Virus record (IMG/VR): IMGVR_UViG_3300042731_002921
Span: 1-64,000 of that record
Source of the DNA: a virus
Taxonomy: Duplodnaviria; Caudoviricetes
DNA: 64,000 bases
Strand: one strand, 5' to 3'
How positions within the stretch are numbered: position 1 is the first letter of the stretch; every line of letters starts with the position of its first letter. Position numbers and translations under genes: made by a program. This document shows, in pieces, positions 7,919 to 59,530 of this stretch. The notes under the pieces were generated by a model. The model made no database searches, was not told the DNA's origin, and worked only from the letters and a program-made list of their open reading frames with translations.

Positions 7919-8638
7919 ATGTCAAAAAGAGTAAAGGTTTGTGTAAAAACAAATCAATCTGAGTATTATGTTTGGAGTAACATGAAAAACAGATGTCTGA
8001 ACAAGAAAAGTGATGATTATAAATATTATGGTGGACGTGGTATTTATATCTACAGTCAGTGGTTATCTTTTAAAAACTTTTATAAAGATATGGGTGTCAG
8101 GCCATCACACAAGCATCAATTAGATAGGATTGATAATAATGGCCCTTATGCTCCTTGGAATTGTAGATGGGCTACAAGAAAACAAAACATGAGAAACACA
8201 AGTAGAAACCATTTAATTACTTTCCAAAATAAAACACAAACAATGGTTGAGTGGTCAGAAGATACTGGTATTACATATACAACATTGAGAGCAAGAATTC
8301 GTAACGGTTGGTCATCAGAGGACGCTCTTACAACACCAATAGGTGAGACTATTGTAAATAGAAGAAAGAATAATATAAACTTTACTATTGAAGATTACCC
8401 TGATATCACAGGGGTTACATTTCGTAAAAGTCGGTGGTCTTGGGTAGCATGACTCGCTGTTGATGGTAAAATGACATATCTTGGCAGTTCTACAGATTTT
8501 AACAAAGCTGTATTTATTAGGTATACAGCAGAAGTTAATAATAATTGCGTACAAGTAGGAGAGAAATCCGCATATGTTTATTTAAAAACCAAAAATCTTC
8601 TTGATGATGAATTTGATTTAAAAACAGGAAATAGATAA
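7919..8638 (+). pseudogene. HNH-AP2 homing endonuclease interrupted by an in-frame TGA at 8450-8452
   Basis: HNH (LDRIDNNGPYAPWNCRWAT); the frame stays open for 61 codons past the TGA, completes the AP2 domain and ends in TAA overlapping the next ATG. Confidence 0.8.
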
Positions 8639-9237: not shown

Positions 9238-9290
9238 TATTCCTTGTATATTAATTTATGCAGGGAATTTTTATTTTAGGAGACTATGCC

Positions 9291-10058
9291 ATGAATGAAA
9301 TACTAATACCTTCTCAAACTTTTAATGAGCCTTTTAATAAAGTTCTGAATAAGATTGATGGTGTAATAACAAAGACAGAAAGAAAGCTTCTTATTCTTTT
9401 TGAAGGCTATTGCTACAAAGATGGCCTTATATTTCCAAAGCAAAAGACAATAGCTTATAAGCTTGGTATCTCTAAAAGACAGGTTATTCGTGTTATTAAA
9501 TCATTACAGGACAAGATGTTCATTAAGGTTAATCCATCTAATCTTTTGGATCGTCATCTATATGGAAAGGGCAATTCTTATCATCTTTTAGATCATTCTG
9601 TGTACCAAGATTCTAAAAAAATATTGTCTTCAATGTCACATGAAATGTCATCTGAAACAGGTGATGTATCCTTTATAGAAAATAAATTAATTAAACATAA
9701 GAGCGGTTCAGATTTTGATATTGTTGAGTTTTTAAAAAAGAATCAAACCAAACATCATCAAGCTATCATTGATGCTTTGAATGCTTTAACTGCAAGATGG
9801 CCTTCAATTAAAAATCCTATGAATTATGCAAATAAGATTATTTCTGTTCAGTCTGGAAACTATAATGCTTCTGATTATGAACAACAAGCAGCTCAAGAAA
9901 CTAAAGAAATAAACGCAGGATATGTTAAAATAGTCCAAGAAATCGGTTTTGACCTTGAGTCTATAGATAGACATCAGAAAGAAGAAACAACGCAAGAAAT
10001 AGCTAAAAGACTTAATGATCAACGCAACAAGATTTTTGAAATGTTTGGTAAAGATTAG
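9291..10058 (+). CDS. Winged-helix HTH protein, replication-initiator-like
   Basis: FPKQKTIAYKLGISKRQVIRVIKSLQDKMFI helix-turn-helix followed by a wing (GKGNSYHL). Confidence 0.6.
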   Translation: MNEILIPSQTFNEPFNKVLNKIDGVITKTERKLLILFEGYCYKDGLIFPKQKTIAYKLGISKRQVIRVIKSLQDKMFIKVNPSNLLDRHLYGKGNSYHLLDHSVYQDSKKILSSMSHEMSSETGDVSFIENKLIKHKSGSDFDIVEFLKKNQTKHHQAIIDALNALTARWPSIKNPMNYANKIISVQSGNYNASDYEQQAAQETKEINAGYVKIVQEIGFDLESIDRHQKEETTQEIAKRLNDQRNKIFEMFGKD

Positions 10059-26083: not shown

Positions 26084-28809
26084 TATGAAAACATATACAA
26101 GAGTAATAGTAGAAGAGAATGAAGATATTCCAGAATCAGAAGTCTTCAAGATGTTTGTAAAAGAGATCAATCACTGGCATCAGACTAATGAAATTGATTT
26201 TATGATTACTTCGGATACACCAGGATACATTACAAGATTCTCGTCAATGAACACAGGGGATATAGGCCATAACAATCTACAGGTTATTAGAGATGCTGCA
26301 TGTCTTGAAGTTAATGAGTTTTGGGATAAGTACGAAGATAAATTAAAAGGTAAATGGCACAACAATAAACGTATTATTTTATATTAATTAACTCTTGTTT
26401 TTATGTTAAAATTATGGTACTTCTTATTTAGAAATTAAGATTAAAAGGAGATAATATGAAAAAGAAACCAGAGAAAACAGATTTAGAAATTTGCAGAGAT
26501 AAAATCAAAAGTATCTTAATTGAGTATAATTGTAGACTTACGACTAATGACTGGCATTATGTTTTATTAGAAGATCAAGATACTTATGAAACTATTGGTG
26601 ATATAGATCCTGGGAGGTGATATGAAAGTTGACTGGTTAAAATACGATGATAAATAACACGTTATAGCTTGGTTCCTTCTTGAAGCAATGACAGAGGTAG
26701 GTATTGAGAAATTCGGTGAATTTGATAGTTCTGCTCTTGAAGTAAAGTTCACAGTTAATGATATTAAAATACCTTTTATTAAAGTATTTGAATTTTTAGA
26801 CGATCATGTAAATGATAAAGAAGGTAGACTGTTTGAAGAAGGTAGATTAAAAGCTAAACGTGAAATTTGTGATGAAATTGAGCAGCTTCAAGAGTCTGTT
26901 GCATCTTTAAGCAATCTTCTTAAAAACATTAACGTTTATGAATTAAGGAATGAATAAAATGGAAAATCAAGCGGTTAATTTAAATAAATGTAAATCAGGG
27001 AATAACATAAAAACATTTGAACAAGTTTATGATGAGATTGAAAAATGTGTAAAAAATCTTGAGGTAGAATATGAAGTTGAAGAAGATGGGATAGGTACAT
27101 ATGAGTTCTGGGGAAGCCGTGAGGTGGACTATGGATCTAAATGGATAGAACCAAAAGAATCAGTAATAACGGTTATTGGTGTTGATATTAAAACAGCCAA
27201 TGAGGTTATTAAGTACTCAGATGATAATTATTTTGTGAAATATATAGCAGAGGACAGATTCATTGGAGAAGTGGTTAGTTGTGTTTTCACTGACACTACT
27301 ACTGTTGATTTTTATATCCACTGGGAGGAGAGGAGTGAATTCTAAAGAAATAACAGTTCTTTTGCCTATAAATGTTCCTAACTCTGAATGGTGTATAAAT
27401 ATAAACTTTCATAGCTGGTGCCAATACTATGAAGATGGTTGCTGTAAATTAGGTTTTACCCCAGAAGCAGACGGTTATAATTATAGAAAACCAAACGCCT
27501 GTAAGAAATTAATATGGCAAGAAAACATAATAGAACACAAAATTCTTGACAAAAATATTCTTGTATAGTAACTAAAAAGGAGATAAATATGGAATATAAA
27601 ACAAATAAGATTTACAGAGTTAAGTGTAAAGTAAGTTATACTTTTAATGTGAAAGCTGATGATATATTAGAGTGCATGTACAAAGAGTTTAAAGATAGCA
27701 AAGAGTTCTGTTGGCATACTAATCAACGCAATGATAATTTTGGTTATGCATGGACAAATGAGGGGTTTAAGTATCATTTCACAGAACCACAAGAAGTTAA
27801 AAGCAATGTAAATAGTGATTATTCATTTAAAACAGATAAGATGAATTTGAATCTTCTTTGTGCGGATATTTTAGAAGATGGTGTACCTTGCGCTTACATT
27901 GAGCAAGGTGATAATGCTTACTTTGTTGGTGTTAGTAATCCAGCAATTAAATGGTGGGATACTTTTATCGATAAAGGATTGTATATCACTTATGCAGATA
28001 TTGTTTCTGCATACCAAGTTATTGAAGTGGAAAAATTGGAAGAATCGAAAAATCTTGCGCAGGAACTTTCTAAAAGATACAAGAAATGGCATAAGAATCT
28101 CAGAAGAAAGACTTGTAGGAGATCAAGAACCCTGAAGAAAACTAAAACTTTTAATGTTTGGGCTTATTAGGAGAAGTAAATGATAAAGAAAGAAATAGGT
28201 ATTGTACTTTGTTACTGCTTTGCGGTATGTTGTGTGTTTTCTACTGCTTTTATAATGTATAAGCATACGCAGACTATTAAGATACATAATGAATGTATTG
28301 AACAACTTACGCAACAGGTAATGGAATTAGAGGAATTCAAAAAGAATCAAGGGGTTGTAAATAATAATACATTGCTCGTCTTTAAAAGAGTTGTTGAGAC
28401 AATAGGAGCTATTAATAGGAGATAGGTATGCTAAAATTACAAGATTTCAGAGATGTAGGTTATTCAGTAACTAAATGTGCTATTACAGCAAGAATGGAAG
28501 CAGATACATACAAATGGTTGATACAAAAACCAGTTTATGGAGAATCTGATAAAAAATATTTCATTAATGTATTTGTCTGTGATATTAGACTTTGGGATAT
28601 TTATGATAAAGATAGAATGAATTATATGCCAAGTAGAACTTTAACTATTAAACAATGCTATCAAAAAGATGATTTAACTTTCTGGATTGATATTTGTAAA
28701 AATAAAGAATTTCAAAGTATAGAAGAGATTGAACTTATTTGTGAGGAATTCTTCCAGAATATGTGCTGTAATTATTATGATTAAATCATTAAAATTGGCT
28801 TAAAAATCA

Positions 28810-28841
28810 AGGTATATGATTAGTTAATACTATCATATACC
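28810..28841. repeat. Imperfect palindrome preceding repeat array 1
   Basis: AGGTATATGATTAG/CTATCATATACCT arms with a 6-nt loop. Confidence 0.7.
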
Positions 28842-28888
28842 TCTTCACTTAAATCGCGAAATTTGATATAAAATGAATGGAGCAGCAT

Positions 28889-29021
28889 CTTATTTTTATT
28901 CTTATTTTCTGTAGAGTGTACAGCCTTTTATTTTTATTCTTATTTTCTGTAGAGTGTACAGCCTTTTATTTTTATTCTTATTTTTTGATATGGAGCATCT
29001 TATTTTTTGTCTTATTTTCTG
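28889..29021 (+). repeat. Array of four ~22-bp TTATTTT(T)ATTCTTATTTTCTG units with 12-16-bp linkers
   Basis: Units read directly; the linker TAGAGTGTACAGCC is duplicated exactly. Confidence 0.9.
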
Positions 29022-29142
29022 TAGCGCATAACTGGATTTATTATGCAGAATTTTTTATAAATTAATAATTGCTTATTTAAATAAATTATTATTTGCTAAT
29101 CTAAAAACTTCAAACAGAATAAAAAACTGATTCCACATACTC

Positions 29143-29159
29143 CAGGCACGTTCCTTGCA
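29143..29159 (+). promoter_or_regulatory. sigma54-type -24/-12 motif
   Basis: CAGGCACGTTCCTTGCA: GG-N10-GC with CACG and TTGC. Confidence 0.55.
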
Positions 29160-29387
29160 ATCCTTATTATAAGCAAAAACCACTTCCATAGCCACAGTCA
29201 ATCCCTGACCGTTAACGGACATTCATTAAATACCACCTAATAACCCACTAAGCAAATTAAAAATATAGATAAGAGCTTGAAATAATTGACAAATTTTTAA
29301 ATTTTTTCATATGCCTGGTATTTAGTTGTTGGATTATCTAATAAAATCAGCTATATAAAATAATATGAAAAATACTAAAAAATCATT

Positions 29388-29416
29388 TGACATACTGATT
29401 TCAGAAGTGTATAAAT
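29388..29416 (+). promoter_or_regulatory. sigma70 promoter of the ParB-like gene
   Basis: TTGACA-N17-TATAAA followed by the AGGAGG RBS. Confidence 0.7.
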
Positions 29417-29445
29417 AACCAGAATTAACAAAGGAGGAGTAAAAA

Positions 29446-30276
29446 ATGGCACATGCAATGTCAAAAGTTGAAGGTTATGTAAGTAGGAAAGATTTATTTT
29501 ATGTAAATCCAAGATCAATTGTTGTTGTTGACGGTTTCAATCCAAGGACTGATTTTAGTGGCGAAGAAGAGCTTATTCAATCAATTATCAACGTTGGAGT
29601 TCTTGAAGCGTTAGAAGTTAGAAAAAATAAAGAAAACATCCTTGAACTGGTAGACGGAGAAAGAAGACTACGCGCAACACTCAAAGCAATAGAGCAAGGG
29701 AATGATATAGTTTCTGTTCCTTGCTATCTTGTAAAGCAGAATACAAATGAGATTGACCTATTAGTAAGGGCATTGACAAGAAACACTGGTAAACCCTTAA
29801 CACCTGTTGAGGAGGCAAATTCCTTTCAGAAGCTTATTAATTGGGGTTGGAATGTTGAGAAAGTAGCAAGTTTCATTGGTAGATCAATCCCTTATGTTTA
29901 CAAGCGTCTGGAACTTTGTGCTGCAAGTCCAGAACTTGAGAAAGCAATCAACCAAAAAGAGATTACTCTTAATGAAGCTCGCAAGGTAATCAACAACTCA
30001 GACGGTAAAATTGAAGTCCAGGAAGAACAGATCAAAGAGATTAAGCAGCAAAAAGAAGAAAAAGCATTTGAAAAAGAAGCAATAAAAGAAAAAGTTTACT
30101 GTGAAAGAGTCTTGGATTATATAAAATATAAAAAGGATCTTTCTACGCTTCATAGGAAGTTGCAGGCAGCATTCAAAATCAAAGGGGAATCTATGGATTA
30201 CGCCACTATTTCGGATGAATGCATGAATATGATCAGTCTTTTAGAAGAAATTGCAAATTATCAGGATGGGGTATAA
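29446..30276 (+). CDS. ParB/Srx N-terminal domain protein with HTH
   Basis: NPR..F...L..SI...GVL..L.V...LVDGERRLRA; EEA..FQKL..WG....VA..IGRS..YV. Confidence 0.9.
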   Translation: MAHAMSKVEGYVSRKDLFYVNPRSIVVVDGFNPRTDFSGEEELIQSIINVGVLEALEVRKNKENILELVDGERRLRATLKAIEQGNDIVSVPCYLVKQNTNEIDLLVRALTRNTGKPLTPVEEANSFQKLINWGWNVEKVASFIGRSIPYVYKRLELCAASPELEKAINQKEITLNEARKVINNSDGKIEVQEEQIKEIKQQKEEKAFEKEAIKEKVYCERVLDYIKYKKDLSTLHRKLQAAFKIKGESMDYATISDECMNMISLLEEIANYQDGV

Positions 30277-35699: not shown

Positions 35700-36160
35700 A
35701 TGAATTTTTCAGTAACTAAGAATGGTGTTGAGTTATCAAGTGAACTCTATAATTGGGACGAAAAGACTAAGACTTTTTCAACTAATGAAAATGATTTAGT
35801 TTTGGATTTTAGCGGTATTAATGGTCTAACTTTTAAAACTGGTTCTTATTGTACTTTTAAGACTGGTCCTGGTTGTACTTTTAAAACTTATTCTTATTGT
35901 ACTTTTGATGCTGGTTCTGATTGTACTTTTAAAACTGGTTCTGATTGTACTTTTGATACTGGTTCTAATTGCGTTGTAATAAGGAGAGATATCTTTGAGG
36001 TAATAAAATTAAATAAAGGTAAGCAGATTAAATTAAATGGTTCCAAAATCTCTGGCTTTGAAGAAATAGAACCTAAAAAAAAACTATTACTATTGACGGG
36101 AAAGAAATTGAAATTTCAATAGAAAGTTATGAAGAATTAAGAAGCCAATTATGTAAATAG
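35700..36160 (+). CDS. Octapeptide-repeat (FKTGSxCT) beta-solenoid-like protein, probably frameshifted at A9
   Basis: Six 24-bp repeats at about 35830-35972; the -1 frame after A9 (36075-36083) gives TITIDGKEIEISIESYEELRSQLCK. Confidence 0.65.
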
Positions 36161-36216: not shown

Positions 36217-36561
36217 TTTGGTATTGTATTAAGCGATGATTTAGGGGGTATTTATTGAGGTTTACTGATTATGAATACTAATAGGTTAGGTTGTATAGAA
36301 TGGCTTTAAAATAGACGATTTTGGTTGATTTAATGGATAGTGTTACATTGTGGTGAGTTAGTACTTATTTCTATTTATTATTTAAGTTTTCATGTGATAT
36401 TCTTTTGGAATGTATTGTGTGTTTGGTGGCTGAGAATACTGTTAAATATGCTTTCTTATGCTTGTGGGGATTATGTGTGGTATGTTTATTGGGTTAGACT
36501 TATCAACTTGTTAAGTTGTCTTTACAACTTACATACCTGGAGGTATGTATAATACATAAAC

Positions 36562-36628
36562 CTTTTATTTTCTTTCTTATTTTCTGTGGAGAATATACGC
36601 AGGGTCTTATTTTGTTTCTTATTTTCTG
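36562..36628 (+). repeat. Second array of TTATTTT..TTCTTATTTTCTG units (2 copies), preceded by the ACATACCT-GG-AGGTATGT palindrome
   Basis: Same unit as the 28.9-kb array. Confidence 0.8.
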
Positions 36629-36764
36629 ATACAATTAAGCTTATTTGGTAATAAATTAATAAGTAATAATTAATCAAAAATACATAAATAAATGCTTATT
36701 AATAAAAATTAATTGATTAAATGCTTATTAATTTAAAATAGATTAACGGTTATTAAGTTAACAA

Positions 36765-36882
36765 ATACTAATATAAGCATTCACTAAACTAACAATCACT
36801 AACTTAGCAGTCGCTAATATAAGTGTTCACTAAACTAACGATCGTTAATTAATGGCCACTAACTTAACAATCACTAATCAAA
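36765..36882 (+). repeat. About eight ~15-bp units with a CACTAA/CGCTAA core
   Basis: e.g. attcactaaactaac, aatcactaacttagc, gttcactaaactaac, ggccactaacttaac. Confidence 0.8.
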
Positions 36883-37066
36883 ATACAAGCGATAACCATG
36901 TCAAAGAGCAACAAGCAATAATCATACCAATAATATCAGACGTTGATATTACATATCAAATCTTATTCTGATAATCATCACATTATACTAAAAAATTAAA
37001 TAGAAGTCAAATAGATTATATCAATAGATTTAGCAGGAAATATTAATAGATCACTCACAAATACCA

Positions 37067-37300
37067 AGCAAATAACGTGCCAACCCTAATAATCCTTCAA
37101 ATCTTTGATTCTATGGACATTTACCAAGTAGGCTTATACTAATACTCAAAAGTTTTAAAACAAGAGATTTGGGCATGTTCTGAGAGTCAATATTTATTAG
37201 AAAACTCTTGACTTTTAATTTGGCATGATACTTGCTAAAGATAATACTTAATAGGATTATATTGAATATAAGCAAGATCCATGCCGGTATATTTCTTGCA
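37067..37300. promoter_or_regulatory. Cluster of four sigma54-type -24/-12 motifs on both strands
   Basis: 37067-83(-) TTGGCACGTTATTTGCT; 37220-36(+) TTGGCATGATACTTGCT; 37271-87(-) CCGGCATGGATCTTGCT; 37284-300(+) CCGGTATATTTCTTGCA. Confidence 0.6.
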
Positions 37301-37330
37301 ATTCCTTATTATATACAGGATAAAAGTTGA

Positions 37331-37426
37331 ATTAATAATTTTTAAAATAATTCATAAAATCGTTTGATATTGATAATTATATGGCGTATAAAGAATTATA
37401 ACTTAAACAAAAGGAGATGCAACATG
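37331..37426 (+). repeat. 96-bp promoter+RBS+ATG cassette, copy 1
   Basis: Identical to 38381-38476 except at 2 nt. Confidence 0.95.
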
Positions 37427-37609
37427 GGAACTGATACAACAAGTGAATACGAGTATCATTGTGAAGTCCAGAATGAAGTACTGAAACGCAAGATTAGGGA
37501 TCATGAAATCGCTTTAGCAATTCTTCCAATCGGATCTTATGAATATAATAGGATTAAAGATTTGATTTTTGGTTGGACAATGAGATTACAAGATAATGAT
37601 AAATCATAA
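37424..37609 (+). CDS. Hypothetical protein (61 aa)
   Basis: AGGAG RBS and ATG at the end of the repeat cassette. Confidence 0.6.
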   Translation: MGTDTTSEYEYHCEVQNEVLKRKIRDHEIALAILPIGSYEYNRIKDLIFGWTMRLQDNDKS

Positions 37610-37649
37610 GTAGTGAAAAACTCACATATAAAAACAAAGGAGAAACAGC

Positions 37650-38339
37650 ATGGAACAACACATAGTTAATTTTTCAGGTGGTAAAGATTCAACTGCAATG
37701 CTTTTGAAAATGATCGAAAAAGGTATGAGAATTGATAGGGTTATTTGTGTTGATACAACCAAAGAATTTCCTGAAATGTATAACCACATCAAGGAAGTTC
37801 AAAAACTTTGCCCTGTTGAAATAGAAATTATTAAAATTGATTTTGATTATTGGTTATCTGAGCATGTGAAAACCAAAGGTAAAAATAAAGGGAAGAAAGG
37901 TTATGGTTGGCCTGATTTTAGAAATAGGTGGTGTACTGCTTTAAAAAGAGATACCGTTAAACGTATTGAGAAAACACTACCTGGCAATACAATTCAGTAT
38001 CACGGTATTGCATTTGATGAGCCAAAAAGACTTGAAAAAAACAAAGGAAGAATAATCAAATATCCTTTAGTTAATTGGAAGATGACTGAAAAAGATTGCC
38101 TTGAATATTGTTATTCTAAGGGTTTACGGTGGGGCGGAGTATATGAAAAGTTTGACAGGGTCTCATGTTATTGTTGCCCATTATCAAGGATAGGTGAACT
38201 CAGAACATTATATAATGAATATCCTGAATTGTGGGATAAAATGAAGGAAATGGATGAAAAATCCTATCGTAAGTTTAGGAGTAATTATACCATTGATGAA
38301 CTCGAGATTAAGTTTGAACAAGAAAACATATTAATATAG
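37650..38339 (+). CDS. Phosphoadenosine phosphosulfate (PAPS) reductase-family / PP-loop protein
   Basis: FSGGKDSTAM PP-loop, DT..EFPE, RWCT..LK, YPL..W and RVSCYCCP. Confidence 0.9.
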   Translation: MEQHIVNFSGGKDSTAMLLKMIEKGMRIDRVICVDTTKEFPEMYNHIKEVQKLCPVEIEIIKIDFDYWLSEHVKTKGKNKGKKGYGWPDFRNRWCTALKRDTVKRIEKTLPGNTIQYHGIAFDEPKRLEKNKGRIIKYPLVNWKMTEKDCLEYCYSKGLRWGGVYEKFDRVSCYCCPLSRIGELRTLYNEYPELWDKMKEMDEKSYRKFRSNYTIDELEIKFEQENILI

Positions 38340-40126: not shown

Positions 40127-40409
40127 TAATGGCTGAATTAATAGAAGAGTTAAAACGGCTCAATCAAGATAATGACACAGCGAAAGAAATCATTGAAATC
40201 ATTGAAGAGGGTAAAGACAATGTCAATTGATCAATTCATAAATGAATACCGCGATTATATCAACATGGTAATGGGGCATAATAGCCTGATAGATGCAGAC
40301 CAAGAAGAGATAGAACTTTGGATTATGAATGATGAAGGGCTTTATACATTGGCTATGAGTGAAGGAGTAGAAGTTTAACAGATAACCTAAAGACAAACCA
40401 CACAAAATA

Positions 40410-40448
40410 GCCCCTGAGAGTGTAAAAGCTTTCAGGGGTTTTCCTTTT
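40410..40448 (+). terminator. Intrinsic terminator ending the + strand early block
   Basis: CCCCTGAGAG-loop-CTTTCAGGGG followed by a T-rich tail. Confidence 0.8.
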
Positions 40449-40535
40449 GATTGATATCTGAACACATGCTCATATGAATGATTGATCAATTAAGTCTATG
40501 TATATATGAACAAATGATCTTATGAGTATATGTAT

Positions 40536-40771
40536 ATATGAACACTTGAACATATGAACTTGAACACTTGAACATTCTTTCATATGAACATCTTCTCATA
40601 TGAGCACTTGAACATATGAGCACTTGAACATATGAACTTGAACACTTGAACATTCTTTCATATGAACATCTTCTCATATGAGCACTTGAACATATGAGCA
40701 CTTGAACATATGAGCACTTGAACATTCTTTCATATGAACATCTTCTCATATGAACACTTGAACATATGAAC
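40536..40771. repeat. Higher-order tandem array built from 8-bp modules
   Basis: ATATGA(A/G)C, ACTTGAAC, ATTCTTTC and ATCTTCTC modules; a 24-mer marker recurs at 40574, 40652 and 40724. Confidence 0.95.
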
Positions 40772-40843
40772 AGATATTTTGGGATTATTGGCCTTTTGAC
40801 ATGGTTATTGCTTGTGCGTTAAGCACATAACTATCTAATTTTA

Positions 40844-46985: not shown

Positions 46986-47650
46986 AACGCACCTCTTTCT
47001 ACATGTTTCCATGCTTTATTATTCTTTATGTTTGAAATTATATTATCACCTACACCAAATCTCTTAGCAATTTCTGTTTGTTTTAATTTCTTCTCTGAAA
47101 GCAATCTGAGAATTTCAATAACATCATCCTCATTCAACTTACTGTTGGTTACTTTTGAGCCTTTTTGTCCGCGACCTTTATTTATTATATCATCTATATT
47201 ATCTTGTTGAGTTCCTTTAAATAAATGTTCTGGATTAACACAAGACGGGTTATCACACGTATGACACACAATATCTTCATCTGAGAGAGTATTATCTTTA
47301 TAAGAAAAATAAGAAAATCTATGTGTCAACCAATGTTTATTATATTTTGAATGATTTATTTGCCAATGACCATAACCACTTGTGAGTTTATGTGCATTCC
47401 AATTCCAACACTCAAATGGAGATTTCATTTCAAAATGTTTTTCAAAGTTATCAACAGGGTCTTTTGGTTTATTAGAACATCCACATGTTTTTCTTTTTCC
47501 TAAAACTAAATCTGAAGCATTTGCAAAAGAATATCCTCCACAAGAACATTTACACATCCACTTTGTATGACAATTTTCTTTAGTATCAAGTGGATATAAA
47601 GCTTTTAATTTTCCAAATTGTTTATTTTCAATTGTTTTATATTTATTCAT
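46982..47650 (-). CDS. HNH homing endonuclease between nrdD and nrdG
   Basis: CWNW...GYG...THRFSY...VCHTCDNPSCVNPEHL..GT..DN; N-terminal C.CSCG and C-terminal HTH. Confidence 0.9.
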   Translation of the reverse strand: MNKYKTIENKQFGKLKALYPLDTKENCHTKWMCKCSCGGYSFANASDLVLGKRKTCGCSNKPKDPVDNFEKHFEMKSPFECWNWNAHKLTSGYGHWQINHSKYNKHWLTHRFSYFSYKDNTLSDEDIVCHTCDNPSCVNPEHLFKGTQQDNIDDIINKGRGQKGSKVTNSKLNEDDVIEILRLLSEKKLKQTEIAKRFGVGDNIISNIKNNKAWKHVERGAF

Positions 47651-50600
47651 TACCAACACCTTTATAAAATTGTCTGTGAGGGAAATCTAATGTACGTCTT
47701 ACTTCGTTCCAGTTAGCGACATTTGTGCAGAATCCTACAGTTCGGGTTATGTACCTGTCAACGTTACAACCACAAATTGGACAAACTTCAGCATCAATAA
47801 ATACATGATTATTCTTACACCTCTTCATTACATAATTTACACTCCAATAAACAACTCCACATTTAGCAGCATAATTCATAAGATCAACCATCGTCTGTTT
47901 ATTTTTAATTTCTTCTCCTATATTTATATGGCAGACACAGCCTCCACTGAATTTATTATCAAATTTACCTTGTAAACGTATTCTTTCGAGCATATTCGCT
48001 GTTGTTGTTAATGGAATAAACTGATTACTATAAAGATGATATTTATCTTGATATTTAAGGGTTCTATCCCTTTGTGCTAATTTCACAGCAGAAGATTCAC
48101 TTGGTGTTTGCTCACAAGAATGAGGACTTTTGAATCTCTTTGCCATTTTATCATTTTCTTCATTAATAATATCTAAAAGTTTAATAACAAAATCTTCACC
48201 GTTTTCAGAAGTGATATCATATCCAAGAATTTCAAGAGCTTCATTTAAACCATTCACACCATAAGTACTATATTGTTTTGATAAATCCATATGACCAAGT
48301 GTATATAATGGCATTGCATTGAGTTCAATTCTTTTTTTAATAATATTTCTTTTACAATTATTGATTTTTGCTACTGTTCTCACGGATTCTTTTAGAAGCT
48401 CAATGAATTTTTCATCCTTATTATTATCTTTCAATGCAATATAAGCAAGTCTTGGGAAATTCTGAGTTACTACACCAATACTCCCGATCTTTGTACTTCC
48501 TGCACCAAAACTATTAAAATATTCATTTTCCTTGTCTGATCTCAATCGGCAACATCCTGAAATTACTGAACTTTTTCCATAAAACATATTAATAAAACCA
48601 AATTTCATATTTTGTTCTGCGATATACCCAAGGAAATTTTCATCTTTAATCTTACCATCCTCTACTGTAAAACAGGCAGTAACAATAGGAAATGTCAATT
48701 CAGACCTTTCAAGTTCCTCATTCATCGCTTCGATAAAAAGCTTCTGTACTTTTTTAATCGTATCAATCTTAGGAGATTTCCCATCTGCAAAAATATAATC
48801 CCCTACAAGTTCTTCAAGAAAATAATCATCATATATAGAGACATTGGTGAATGGACTTTGGTTCCCTCTGAATTCCCAATTAAGAGTGTAAATAAAACTT
48901 CTTAGCTTTTCAGAAACATATGTCCAAACCCTCTCTTTCTCGCCATTGAACTCATACCAAATATTAATTTTACCATCATCCCCACATTTTTCATCAGAGC
49001 AATCAAAAATTCTATCTACATAATAACTCGCAACAATAAGTACATCTGCAATACCAGTAGCTCCAAGAGTAGAGTTAGCGCAATATACGATGAACTGTTC
49101 CATTTGTCTGATAAAACTATCAAGACTCTTTGGAGGCTTTACGGTCATTCTTCTGGACATAGTAAGCCCCTCAAGGGCAACATCGTAAGTGCTATAGTTA
49201 AAGCAATTATGGCAATAAACACCGTTGCTTGAAAATCTACCAGTTTCTGTAGTTATGTCATAAACCCATTCACCTTTCCATGGCATTTTTTCAATTTTAT
49301 GAATACCACCGCCTTCAAATCTACCATCAATTTTTCTATTTTTGAAAACGACATCTTTATGTTTATTTGCTTTTACACAATAGTTGCAAAATTCTTCATT
49401 ATTACAGACGAAGGATACCCTGTACATCTGAAGCTTAGATTTAAAAGATTTCTCGGAATGTTGTTTACCTACCAAAGAAGTTCTTATTCTGTTGAAACCA
49501 AGTCTTTCACATAGTGCAGCTACTTGTTGAATTAATGCAAAAGATGTGACTCTAATGTCAATCACACCTGTTAGTTTATTAATTGTTCCATCAGTATCAA
49601 CTATCCCAGCTAATAGAGCTAAAGAAGAATCCTCATCTAAATTGTTACTAAATGTAGGTAGATGTTTATTTTTTGCACCAACACCAATCATATCTGACCA
49701 GTGTGTTTTAGTAAATGGGCCATTAGAAAGACATAGTGTCTTACCACCATTCACAGTTGTATCAAAGTATTTATTAAACTTACTGTAGAAGTGTGACTCT
49801 GCTACATTCTTTTGTGTAAAGCCAATCTGTCTGCCTGTATGGCCATCACCAATCATAGCACCAACTAAATAGGCTAATTCTGGAGTCATATAATCACAAT
49901 CAATAAAAGTATTCTTAGCTTTACGTGCTGTTAAAACAGCAATATCATCTTTTGAAAGGTTCTTTGCTTCTAATCCGTCTTCATAATCTTCTGTTATAAA
50001 CGGGTGGTCTTCAGTGACAGAAAGAATAGACCCTGATTTAGTTTCTATGTTTAAAAGATCAGTATGACTCCTGTGTCTAAGCACTCTTGACATTGGAACG
50101 AAATTCTTACCATCAAAAACTTTAATACCTTGACTAAATAAGTTGATCTCCTCCATATCATCTTTAATATCTACCAAATGAGAATATTTATTAAACAATT
50201 CTTCCATTGTAATCTCACCATTTTCATCAGTCAGAATACTTGTTTGTGGGTGATATGAATATGGACGTGCTACATCAGAAAAATCATTTATGTAAATTTC
50301 ACCAGATATCTGTTTTTCAATAATCTGATTCGCCTCTAAAAGACCATAAGATGTCCTAAGTTGCTTCCAAAGTAAATAATGCGAATTATATTTCTGCAAT
50401 GGTTTTTGAAACTCAAAATTATAATCAATAACACTTCGTCCGCTTATATTACTATTATCATCAACACTAACATCAGCAGTTGTTGTATTATTATTAAAAA
50501 AATCCTTAGAAAACTTATTCAAATCAAGCTGATCACCTATACCATTTTCCGTGAAAACTCTTCTTCCGTATTTAGCCCACAAGTGCATCATCAGAGTGTT

Positions 50601-50657
50601 AAAATCTTCATCCCAACCAATTTTGATATACATTCCATTCTCCTTTAAATTAACCAC
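47643..50657 (-). CDS. nrdD: Class III anaerobic ribonucleotide reductase large subunit (intein-containing)
   Basis: RPY|CF, NQSPFTN, GCCRL, GSIGVVT.N, Zn-finger CPICG and glycyl-radical motif RTVGF. Confidence 0.95.
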   Translation of the reverse strand: MVNLKENGMYIKIGWDEDFNTLMMHLWAKYGRRVFTENGIGDQLDLNKFSKDFFNNNTTTADVSVDDNSNISGRSVIDYNFEFQKPLQKYNSHYLLWKQLRTSYGLLEANQIIEKQISGEIYINDFSDVARPYSYHPQTSILTDENGEITMEELFNKYSHLVDIKDDMEEINLFSQGIKVFDGKNFVPMSRVLRHRSHTDLLNIETKSGSILSVTEDHPFITEDYEDGLEAKNLSKDDIAVLTARKAKNTFIDCDYMTPELAYLVGAMIGDGHTGRQIGFTQKNVAESHFYSKFNKYFDTTVNGGKTLCLSNGPFTKTHWSDMIGVGAKNKHLPTFSNNLDEDSSLALLAGIVDTDGTINKLTGVIDIRVTSFALIQQVAALCERLGFNRIRTSLVGKQHSEKSFKSKLQMYRVSFVCNNEEFCNYCVKANKHKDVVFKNRKIDGRFEGGGIHKIEKMPWKGEWVYDITTETGRFSSNGVYCHNCFNYSTYDVALEGLTMSRRMTVKPPKSLDSFIRQMEQFIVYCANSTLGATGIADVLIVASYYVDRIFDCSDEKCGDDGKINIWYEFNGEKERVWTYVSEKLRSFIYTLNWEFRGNQSPFTNVSIYDDYFLEELVGDYIFADGKSPKIDTIKKVQKLFIEAMNEELERSELTFPIVTACFTVEDGKIKDENFLGYIAEQNMKFGFINMFYGKSSVISGCCRLRSDKENEYFNSFGAGSTKIGSIGVVTQNFPRLAYIALKDNNKDEKFIELLKESVRTVAKINNCKRNIIKKRIELNAMPLYTLGHMDLSKQYSTYGVNGLNEALEILGYDITSENGEDFVIKLLDIINEENDKMAKRFKSPHSCEQTPSESSAVKLAQRDRTLKYQDKYHLYSNQFIPLTTTANMLERIRLQGKFDNKFSGGCVCHINIGEEIKNKQTMVDLMNYAAKCGVVYWSVNYVMKRCKNNHVFIDAEVCPICGCNVDRYITRTVGFCTNVANWNEVRRTLDFPHRQFYKGVGNE
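49206..50258 (-). mobile_element. Intein (351 aa) with LAGLIDADG endonuclease in nrdD
   Basis: Starts SYHPQT, block B VTEDHPF, LVGAMIGDG and LAGIVDTDG motifs, ends VYDITT...CHN before Cys. Confidence 0.92.
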
Positions 50658-59092: not shown

Positions 59093-59530
59093 TTAAAGAA
59101 CACGAGCTTTGTACTTCTTCTCTCTTCTTTGGTTTGGTTTTGTTTCTATTATATCTTTATCATCCCATTTCGCTTTTTTCCTATAAAGCAATGTGCTATA
59201 ACTTATACCTGTTAACTTTACCCAATACTTTAATCCTTCTGTTTTGTTGTTGTAGGTAATAGTGTACTGAATCATATGGTTTCCTGGTTTCTTTGTTGTC
59301 CATTTAACGTTATCTGGTACAAAGCCTTTAGTTGTGTCTATTCTAACAAAGTAATGATCTTTAGGCATTGGCCCTATGTCTTGTTTGAATTTTTCATAAT
59401 CACAGATCCATTCTTTGTGCATACCAACTTCTTGTTCTTTGGTGTAGTTGTTCTTGTTTGGAAGACATCTCCTTTTGATACTCGCCCATAGTTTGTATTC
59501 TGGTTGTTCCTTCTTTGTTTTGTATTTCAT
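59093..59530 (-). CDS. HNH-related protein, probably degenerate
   Basis: W..IKRRC...F..DIG..P......RID..KG..P.N.KW.T and ITYN..T..L..W...TGI; parallels the 7919 HNH. Confidence 0.65.
   Translation of the reverse strand: MKYKTKKEQPEYKLWASIKRRCLPNKNNYTKEQEVGMHKEWICDYEKFKQDIGPMPKDHYFVRIDTTKGFVPDNVKWTTKKPGNHMIQYTITYNNKTEGLKYWVKLTGISYSTLLYRKKAKWDDKDIIETKPNQRREKKYKARVL

Follow-up and report, generated by a model that had tools for sequence, protein, structure and literature searches.

A cluster of GG-N10-GC motifs on both strands of the non-coding DNA at positions 37067-37300 of an uncultivated Caudoviricetes phage raises the question of whether these are true sigma-54-type -24/-12 elements and, if so, what reads them and to what end. 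The stretch analysed here, which we call the window, is the first 64 kb of IMG/VR record IMGVR_UViG_3300042731_002921, a phage genome of 84,387 bp with a GC content of 0.32 and a 69-bp terminal overlap. A sequence-only reading of the window had pointed out four motifs in this cluster and a fifth at 29143, and all five are present at the positions and on the strands that it gave. The box with the top matrix score in the 84-kb genome (21.6 bits), S1 (37067-37083, - strand), points leftward and is a perfect sigma-54-type -24/-12 box. S2 (37220-37236, +), also perfect (19.7 bits), is aimed at orf61 and a PAPS-reductase-like gene. S3 (37271-37287, -; 17.2 bits) stands back to back with S4 (37284-37300, +), a weak box (9.2 bits, with GGTAT instead of GGCAC) that is counted as a box only because it is a paralogue of S5 (29143-29159, +; 18.0 bits), which lies upstream of a ParB-like gene. 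To these we add a weak sixth box, S6 (36914-36930, -; GGTAT, 14.5 bits). All six have GG at -24 and GC at -12 with exactly 10 nt between them; the extended consensus YTGGCACG-N4-TTGCW is matched in full by S1 and S2, missed by S3 and S5 only at the TT before the GG, and matched weakly by S4 and S6. S1 and S2 are divergent and spaced 154 bp apart, and S2 and S3 are face to face, with 33 nt separating their -12 GC dinucleotides. The sharing of one CCGG (37284-37287) by S3 and S4, and of a 13-14 nt extension 3' of the -12 element by S4 and S5, had been pointed out earlier, and both are borne out in the sequence.

How far these boxes exceed expectation depends on the stringency of the pattern. The bare GG-N10-GC motif is found 109 times in the window against 80 expected, a mild enrichment that is weak evidence, and the stricter TGGCAY-N6-TGCW is found twice against 0.17 expected, both times in this cluster. 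With a consensus-derived sigma-54 matrix and a threshold of 17 bits, 4 sites are observed, as against a mean of 0.24 (maximum 2) in 100 first-order Markov simulations. These four, S1, S2, S5 and S3 in descending order, are the best-scoring sites on both strands of the whole 84-kb genome, with the runner-up at 14.6 bits, and they are confined to about 1.5 kb of non-coding DNA in two regions, namely 28785-29445 (region A) and 36553-37423 (region B).

Both regions are laid out in the same order: T-tract direct repeats, an AT-rich stretch, a box with a conserved AT-rich block (S5, or its weak paralogue S4) and, 110-270 nt past the box and block and immediately before the gene, a sigma-70-type promoter. 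The T-tract repeats of region A comprise four copies of about 38 bp (28883-29030, +; repeat family D2) that lie 115-260 nt upstream of S5 and are a candidate enhancer; two further copies (36558-36637, +) form the left edge of region B. Their 12-nt T-tract core occurs five times genome-wide, always on the + strand and only at the S5 locus and at 36.57-36.63 kb. The conserved AT-rich block after S5 (29160-29172, +) covers about -11 to +2 of the predicted S5 start, and its paralogue follows S4 at 37301-37314. We rejected the S5 block as part of a sigma-70 promoter, for there is no -35 element 16-18 nt from it. A sigma-70-like promoter with TTGACA and a 17-nt spacer (29387-29415, +) directly precedes the ParB-like gene (29446-30276, +; Pfam HTH_ParB and ParB_N, PHROG 1033).

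Next to the T-tract copies of region B comes a segment that is free of ORFs on both strands (36640-36878), consisting of an AT-rich stretch and then four copies of a repeat of about 22 nt (36782-36878; repeat family D4). It is followed by a box-like 20-mer with GA replacing GG (36888-36908, -), of which a near-identical inverted copy is found 3.9 kb away (40795-40815, +); these box-like copies, at 36888 and 40797, are probably decayed boxes. Just downstream of S1 stands a leftward sigma-70-like promoter that agrees with the consensus at 11 of 12 positions (36982-37010, -), and directly before orf61 (37424-37609, +) a rightward one with a 17-nt spacer (37364-37392, +); orf61 is followed by the PAPS-reductase-like gene (37650-38339, +; Pfam PF01507, PHROG 424), and both genes are downstream of S2 and S4. 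Thus, S5, S2 and S4 are oriented towards downstream genes at 110-300 nt from the start codons, and S1, S3 and S6 face ORF-free DNA, with the leftward boxes of region B pointing into about 450 nt without an ORF. No terminator-like hairpin is present in 36300-37700, and Rfam yields no credible match in 28-41 kb. A structured non-coding RNA was accordingly rejected, given the lack of an Rfam match and a folding z-score of about -2 on both strands, which is not strand-specific.

The boxes recur at matching places in four relatives despite diverged flanks. The first of these, G001, is a 59.5-kb IMG/VR contig that has 27 genes in common with this phage (capsid 67%, portal 66% and DNA polymerase 30% identical). 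Its two best matrix scores both fall inside one 760-bp non-coding region, whose flanks cannot be aligned with the window and in which four direct repeats resembling iterons precede three face-to-face box pairs whose -12 elements are 4-5 nt apart; G001 also has pairs with TTGA replacing TTGC. In the same contig (L021, about 1480-1678, -) a small ORF (about 64 codons), preceded by a strong ribosome-binding site, begins some 35 nt downstream of a perfect box on the - strand and could be a sigma-54-driven gene. Two further contigs, L218 (72.7 kb) and L219 (87 kb), were found through the ParB-like protein (68% and 58% identical) and retain the complete region-A layout upstream of ParB, including the T-tract repeats and the sigma-70-like promoter. 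In a three-way alignment of this phage with L218 and L219, there is no variation in the GG, in the TTGC or in the 12 nt that follow, and the spacer differs. Among all 30-nt windows in the 581 nt upstream of ParB, conservation peaks at the S5 box stretch, with 18 of 30 positions invariant as against 26% overall, and this exceeds the sigma-70 promoter in the same alignment (13 of 29). The fourth relative, L221 (ParB 63% identical), has a region-B orthologue within about 1.4 kb after ParB (1548-2989). This 1.4-kb non-coding stretch and region B have the orf61 promoter block in common, and in L221 it contains two divergent, near-identical boxes at a distance of 235 bp, the - strand box matching S1 in position. 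Across the 16 boxes read in this phage (G000) and the four relatives, the only constant positions are those critical for sigma-54.

More distant searches added little. BLASTN of the region against GenBank gave no phage match, and the DNA polymerase is at most 36% identical to those of cultured phages. ParB and primase queries of IMG/VR gave no relatives, and a capsid alignment added only two 5-kb fragments. The conserved 16-mer of the orf61 promoter gave only chance matches in metagenomes, none homologous to region B or its genes. Relatives of the PAPS reductase at 50-64% identity are mostly without upstream boxes, which implies that the boxes are not tied to this gene.

These data bear on the explanation that the boxes are functionless products of chance matches and local duplication in AT-rich non-coding DNA. 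Such duplication is visible in the paralogy of S4 with S5 and, likewise, of S6 with the copies at 36888 and 40797, and the mild enrichment of the bare motif is in keeping with it. The spacers of S1, S2, S3 and S5 are nevertheless unrelated to one another, the excess of high-scoring sites over the simulations is large, and the retention of boxes in four relatives with diverged flanks contradicts it, making this explanation highly improbable. Both the matrix scan against background and the search for conservation in related phages had been proposed as checks in the sequence-only reading, and both come out on the side of the boxes, which, on this comparative evidence, hold up as sites under selection.

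Since L221 lacks about 6 kb of small genes that lie between ParB and region B in the window, this interval is a variable cassette zone. Variable DNA between loci, and regulatory modules repeated in the non-coding DNA that separates small early genes, recall the PeSL (promoter-early stem-loop) cassettes of T4-type phages, in which a sigma-70 promoter is combined with a GC-rich terminator hairpin in many copies (PMC2839356). The present system differs in having two loci only, -24/-12 boxes and no such hairpin, and we therefore rejected its identity with PeSL cassettes, which are at most a loose analogue.

What, then, might read the boxes? To our knowledge, sigma-54 is alone among bacterial sigma factors in needing an ATP-driven activator to start transcription. 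The whole genome of this phage contains no PF00158 activator, GAFTGA loop, activator-type Walker A motif or sigma-54 DNA-binding domain, which extends to the entire phage the earlier remark that no enhancer-binding protein was recognisable in the window. Likewise, 48 further box-bearing records, of which ten are at least 90% complete, yielded no sigma-54 activator, and 49 such records no sigma-54 DNA-binding domain; a phage-encoded sigma-54 or activator was rejected on these grounds. Binding by ParB, which had been named as an outcome that would speak against sigma-54, is also unlikely. G001 has boxes and no ParB homologue, and three ParB-bearing loci of other phages have no box of at least 17 bits in 58 kb; on this basis we rejected ParB as the reader and with it a ParB-parS centromere. 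Moreover, a single box is not palindromic, unlike the usual parS sites, which are palindromic 14-16-mers.

Similar boxes are widespread in IMG/VR. Searching for two facing boxes with 4-34 nt between them recovers at least 120 loci, as against 18 for a negative control in which each -24/-12 spacer is one base longer. Among the matches listed, the gap between the facing halves shows a sharp peak at TTGC-N4-GCAA, and the 202 non-redundant half-sites have Y before TGG in 79%, R after TGGCAY in 95%, C of the GC in 87% and W after the GC in 78%. Thus, even the positions left free in the pattern agree with the sigma-54 consensus, in contigs whose GC content ranges from 0.33 to 0.64 among the matches listed, which argues for a universally conserved reader. 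In the 49 box-bearing records the single-box pattern occurs about 220 times, as against twice for its reversed control. Genes flanking the face-to-face pairs diverge in 21 of 44 cases, compared with 14.7% of all adjacent gene pairs, and where a pair lies close to the end of the retrieved stretch the neighbouring gene points away in 19 of 22. Unpaired boxes are intergenic in 61%; for 67 of them the next gene has the same orientation and for 34 the opposite one, a moderate bias (66%) that rests on crude gene calls.

Individual genomes show contrasting arrangements. In a complete 46-kb phage (G017; IMGVR_UViG_3300006916_000082) all 8 perfect boxes are on the - strand inside a - strand gene block, 5 of them read as intergenic at 36-94 nt upstream of gene starts, and there is no activator gene. 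A complete 94-kb phage with a GC content of 0.56 (G019; IMGVR_UViG_3300002520_000024) has about 20 boxes in 3 kb (16.5-19.6 kb), mostly on one strand and several spaced 50-60 bp apart; tandem layouts of this type look more like binding arrays than promoters. A third record (G007) has eight boxes within 430 bp, about 500 bp from one of its ends. The clusters of these other uncultivated phages resemble those described here in the motif, the non-coding sites, the lack of an activator and the opposite-strand pairs; the present phage differs in that S2 and S3 are 33 nt apart and the remaining boxes are solitary, divergent or back to back. In the literature searched, clustered or palindromic sigma-54 boxes are not described for any phage.

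Several of these features would also suit operators of a phage DNA-binding protein, such as a regulator, an initiator or a terminase subunit, whose likeness to sigma-54 sites would be due to mimicry or coincidence. The half-elements are similar pentamers about 11 bp apart, as would fit a protein that binds in tandem, and palindromic pairs are typical of operators. S6, the 36888 copy and the inverted 40797 copy share their spacer and the bases that follow, with GA for GG in two of them, and TTGA takes the place of TTGC in some G001 pairs. The clusters also adjoin iteron-like repeats, and the phage encodes a protein (9258-10058, +) with HTH_36 and DnaD_N-like matches that is probably a replication initiator and could bind these repeats. 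Against operators, the site of a phage protein would be expected to drift along with that protein, whereas the full consensus recurs, unspecified positions included, over the whole range of GC contents, and the dependence on the spacer extends to a single base. The 49 records contain no sigma-54 DNA-binding domain, ParB is excluded as the reader, and no protein family is common to the neighbourhoods of the boxes, the largest neighbour cluster being the large terminase at 21 of 120 loci among the matches listed. We accordingly regard operators as quite unlikely. The agreement with a consensus that is universally conserved in bacteria, the single-base spacer dependence and the recurrence across GC contents instead suggest host sigma-54 polymerase as the most economical reader.

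We favour the view that the boxes are real sigma-54-type -24/-12 elements used as enhancer-dependent auxiliary promoters beside the sigma-70 promoters, and we put its probability at about one half. Host sigma-54 (RpoN/SigL) polymerase would be recruited to the two paralogous non-coding loci, at which S5 would serve the ParB-like operon, S2 and S4 would serve the orf61/PAPS-reductase-like operon, and S1, S3 and S6 would drive leftward transcription over the ORF-free repeats and AT-rich DNA, perhaps for origin activation or to produce a non-coding RNA. In this view the T-tract repeats, with AT-rich DNA between them and the box, would be the likely enhancer, and the ATP-driven step would come from an enhancer-binding protein of the host or from a phage factor that has escaped recognition, with the outcome that both operons and the leftward transcription are coupled to a signal. 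The glnAp2 and nifH promoters have the textbook sigma-54 enhancer-promoter layout, and pspA is another enhancer-dependent sigma-54 promoter. Repeat array, AT-rich DNA and box follow one another as in this textbook layout, which supports the promoter reading.

Compared with bacterial sigma-54 (RpoN/SigL) promoters, the phage boxes have the same GG and GC dinucleotides, exact spacing and extended consensus, and S5 has its repeat array and AT-rich DNA at the corresponding place, about -100 to -260. They differ in belonging to a phage without an encoded AAA+ activator, in being clustered, bidirectional and partly overlapping, in each being followed by a good sigma-70 promoter that serves the same gene, and in having a candidate enhancer of direct T-tract repeats rather than the usual inverted repeats. 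Because the boxes stand 110-300 nt upstream and each gene has a good sigma-70 promoter of its own, they would be dispensable for basal expression. The three functions that the sequence-only reading had offered, promoters, a decoy and repression of sigma-70 promoters, cannot be told apart by sequence alone; the comparative data lean towards promoter-like use, as suggested by the orientation of S5, S2 and S4, the repeat array kept in two relatives and the gene context of boxes elsewhere. The chief weaknesses of the promoter reading are the missing activator, without which canonical sigma-54 cannot initiate, the interlocking of S2, S3 and S4, which overlap too closely for simultaneous occupancy, and the ORF-free DNA faced by S1, S3 and S6. 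The tandem 50-60 bp arrays of G019 and the only moderate orientation bias of unpaired boxes also speak against it.

The chief weaknesses just listed also speak for binding without transcription, in which host sigma-54 polymerase, or sigma-54 alone, would dock on the boxes and never be activated, and the boxes would act as a decoy, a roadblock, an insulator or a modulator of sigma-70 transcription. As a decoy, they would titrate sigma-54 while the phage DNA replicates and so shut down stress or defence responses that depend on sigma-54. Closed complexes of sigma-54 holoenzyme are stable even without an activator, and neither this phage nor the 48 other records encodes one. Mutually exclusive boxes, leftward boxes that confront ORF-free DNA, and tandem or palindromic arrays such as those of G019 and G007 are all compatible with docking. 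Four to six boxes are nevertheless few for a sponge, and S5 keeps an enhancer-like layout and a start-site block that a pure decoy would not need. In addition, the G017 boxes lie at promoter distance before genes, and face-to-face pairs are located where the flanking genes diverge. We therefore consider docking alone unlikely for this phage. A broader version, in which phages of many lineages with activator-less box clusters capture or disarm host sigma-54 polymerase by means of a sponge or docking array, or else fire the boxes through a non-AAA+ phage activator, is doubtful and offered tentatively.

For the promoter reading, a single published phage precedent was found in the literature searched, Pseudomonas phage YuA, for which -24/-12 promoter fragments with measured activity are reported (Ceyssens et al. 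2008 as cited in PMC10914365). Its GenBank record (NC_010116) annotates three active fragments with "-24/-12 consensus", and these sites score at most 14.7 bits with our matrix, a poor match to the consensus. YuA, as represented in that citing account, resembles the present phage in encoding no activator and in having reported sigma-54-type promoters alongside sigma-70 promoters. Its fragments occur singly within the late structural region, in contrast to the near-consensus boxes described here, which are clustered in non-coding hubs among early-type genes.

The role of sigma-54 in phage biology is almost unstudied, and conserved boxes of consensus grade in phages without an activator imply one of three things: a switch that responds to a host signal, the trapping of a host factor, or a new route of activation. 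If the boxes are tied to a signal-controlled activator of the host, they would constitute a conditional switch by which some phage genes sense host physiology. If instead a sponge or a non-AAA+ activator proves true, they would represent a new mode of phage-host transcriptional takeover, of which the two loci of this phage would be one instance. The boxes are short, universal in sequence and easy to assay in vitro, so that the 870 bp of region B make a small and convenient test case for a question that concerns hundreds of uncultivated phages.

As regards the host, strong Shine-Dalgarno sites, a GC content of 30% and an anaerobic ribonucleotide reductase suggest a low-GC anaerobe. Two scans of genome contigs with NrdD gave no host match, and a single PAPS reductase with 72% identity carries the name of a Candidatus Cloacimonas MAG, no more than a hint of a link to that group. 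The large subunit of the anaerobic ribonucleotide reductase (47643-50657, -) contains, at residues 134-484, some 350 residues that the 70%-identical G001 protein lacks, an inserted segment that looks like an intein or a homing-endonuclease insertion. A paralogous gene pair (7919-8452, +, and 59093-59530, -), both members of which match one G001 gene, has one member at the divergence point of the gene blocks. An ORF at 35700-36122 contains seven copies of a 24-nt tandem repeat (35781-35995) that give an 8-residue protein repeat. Where the + and - gene blocks converge, repeats of about 16 bp centred on CATATG, among them a long tandem duplication, densely fill the segment 40450-40790, a candidate centromere or origin. 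The two ORF calls that overlap this array (40223-40489 and 40486-40749) are probably spurious. The two inverted 20-mer copies, at 36888 and 40795, flank the block formed by orf61 and the PAPS-reductase-like gene together with the CATATG array.
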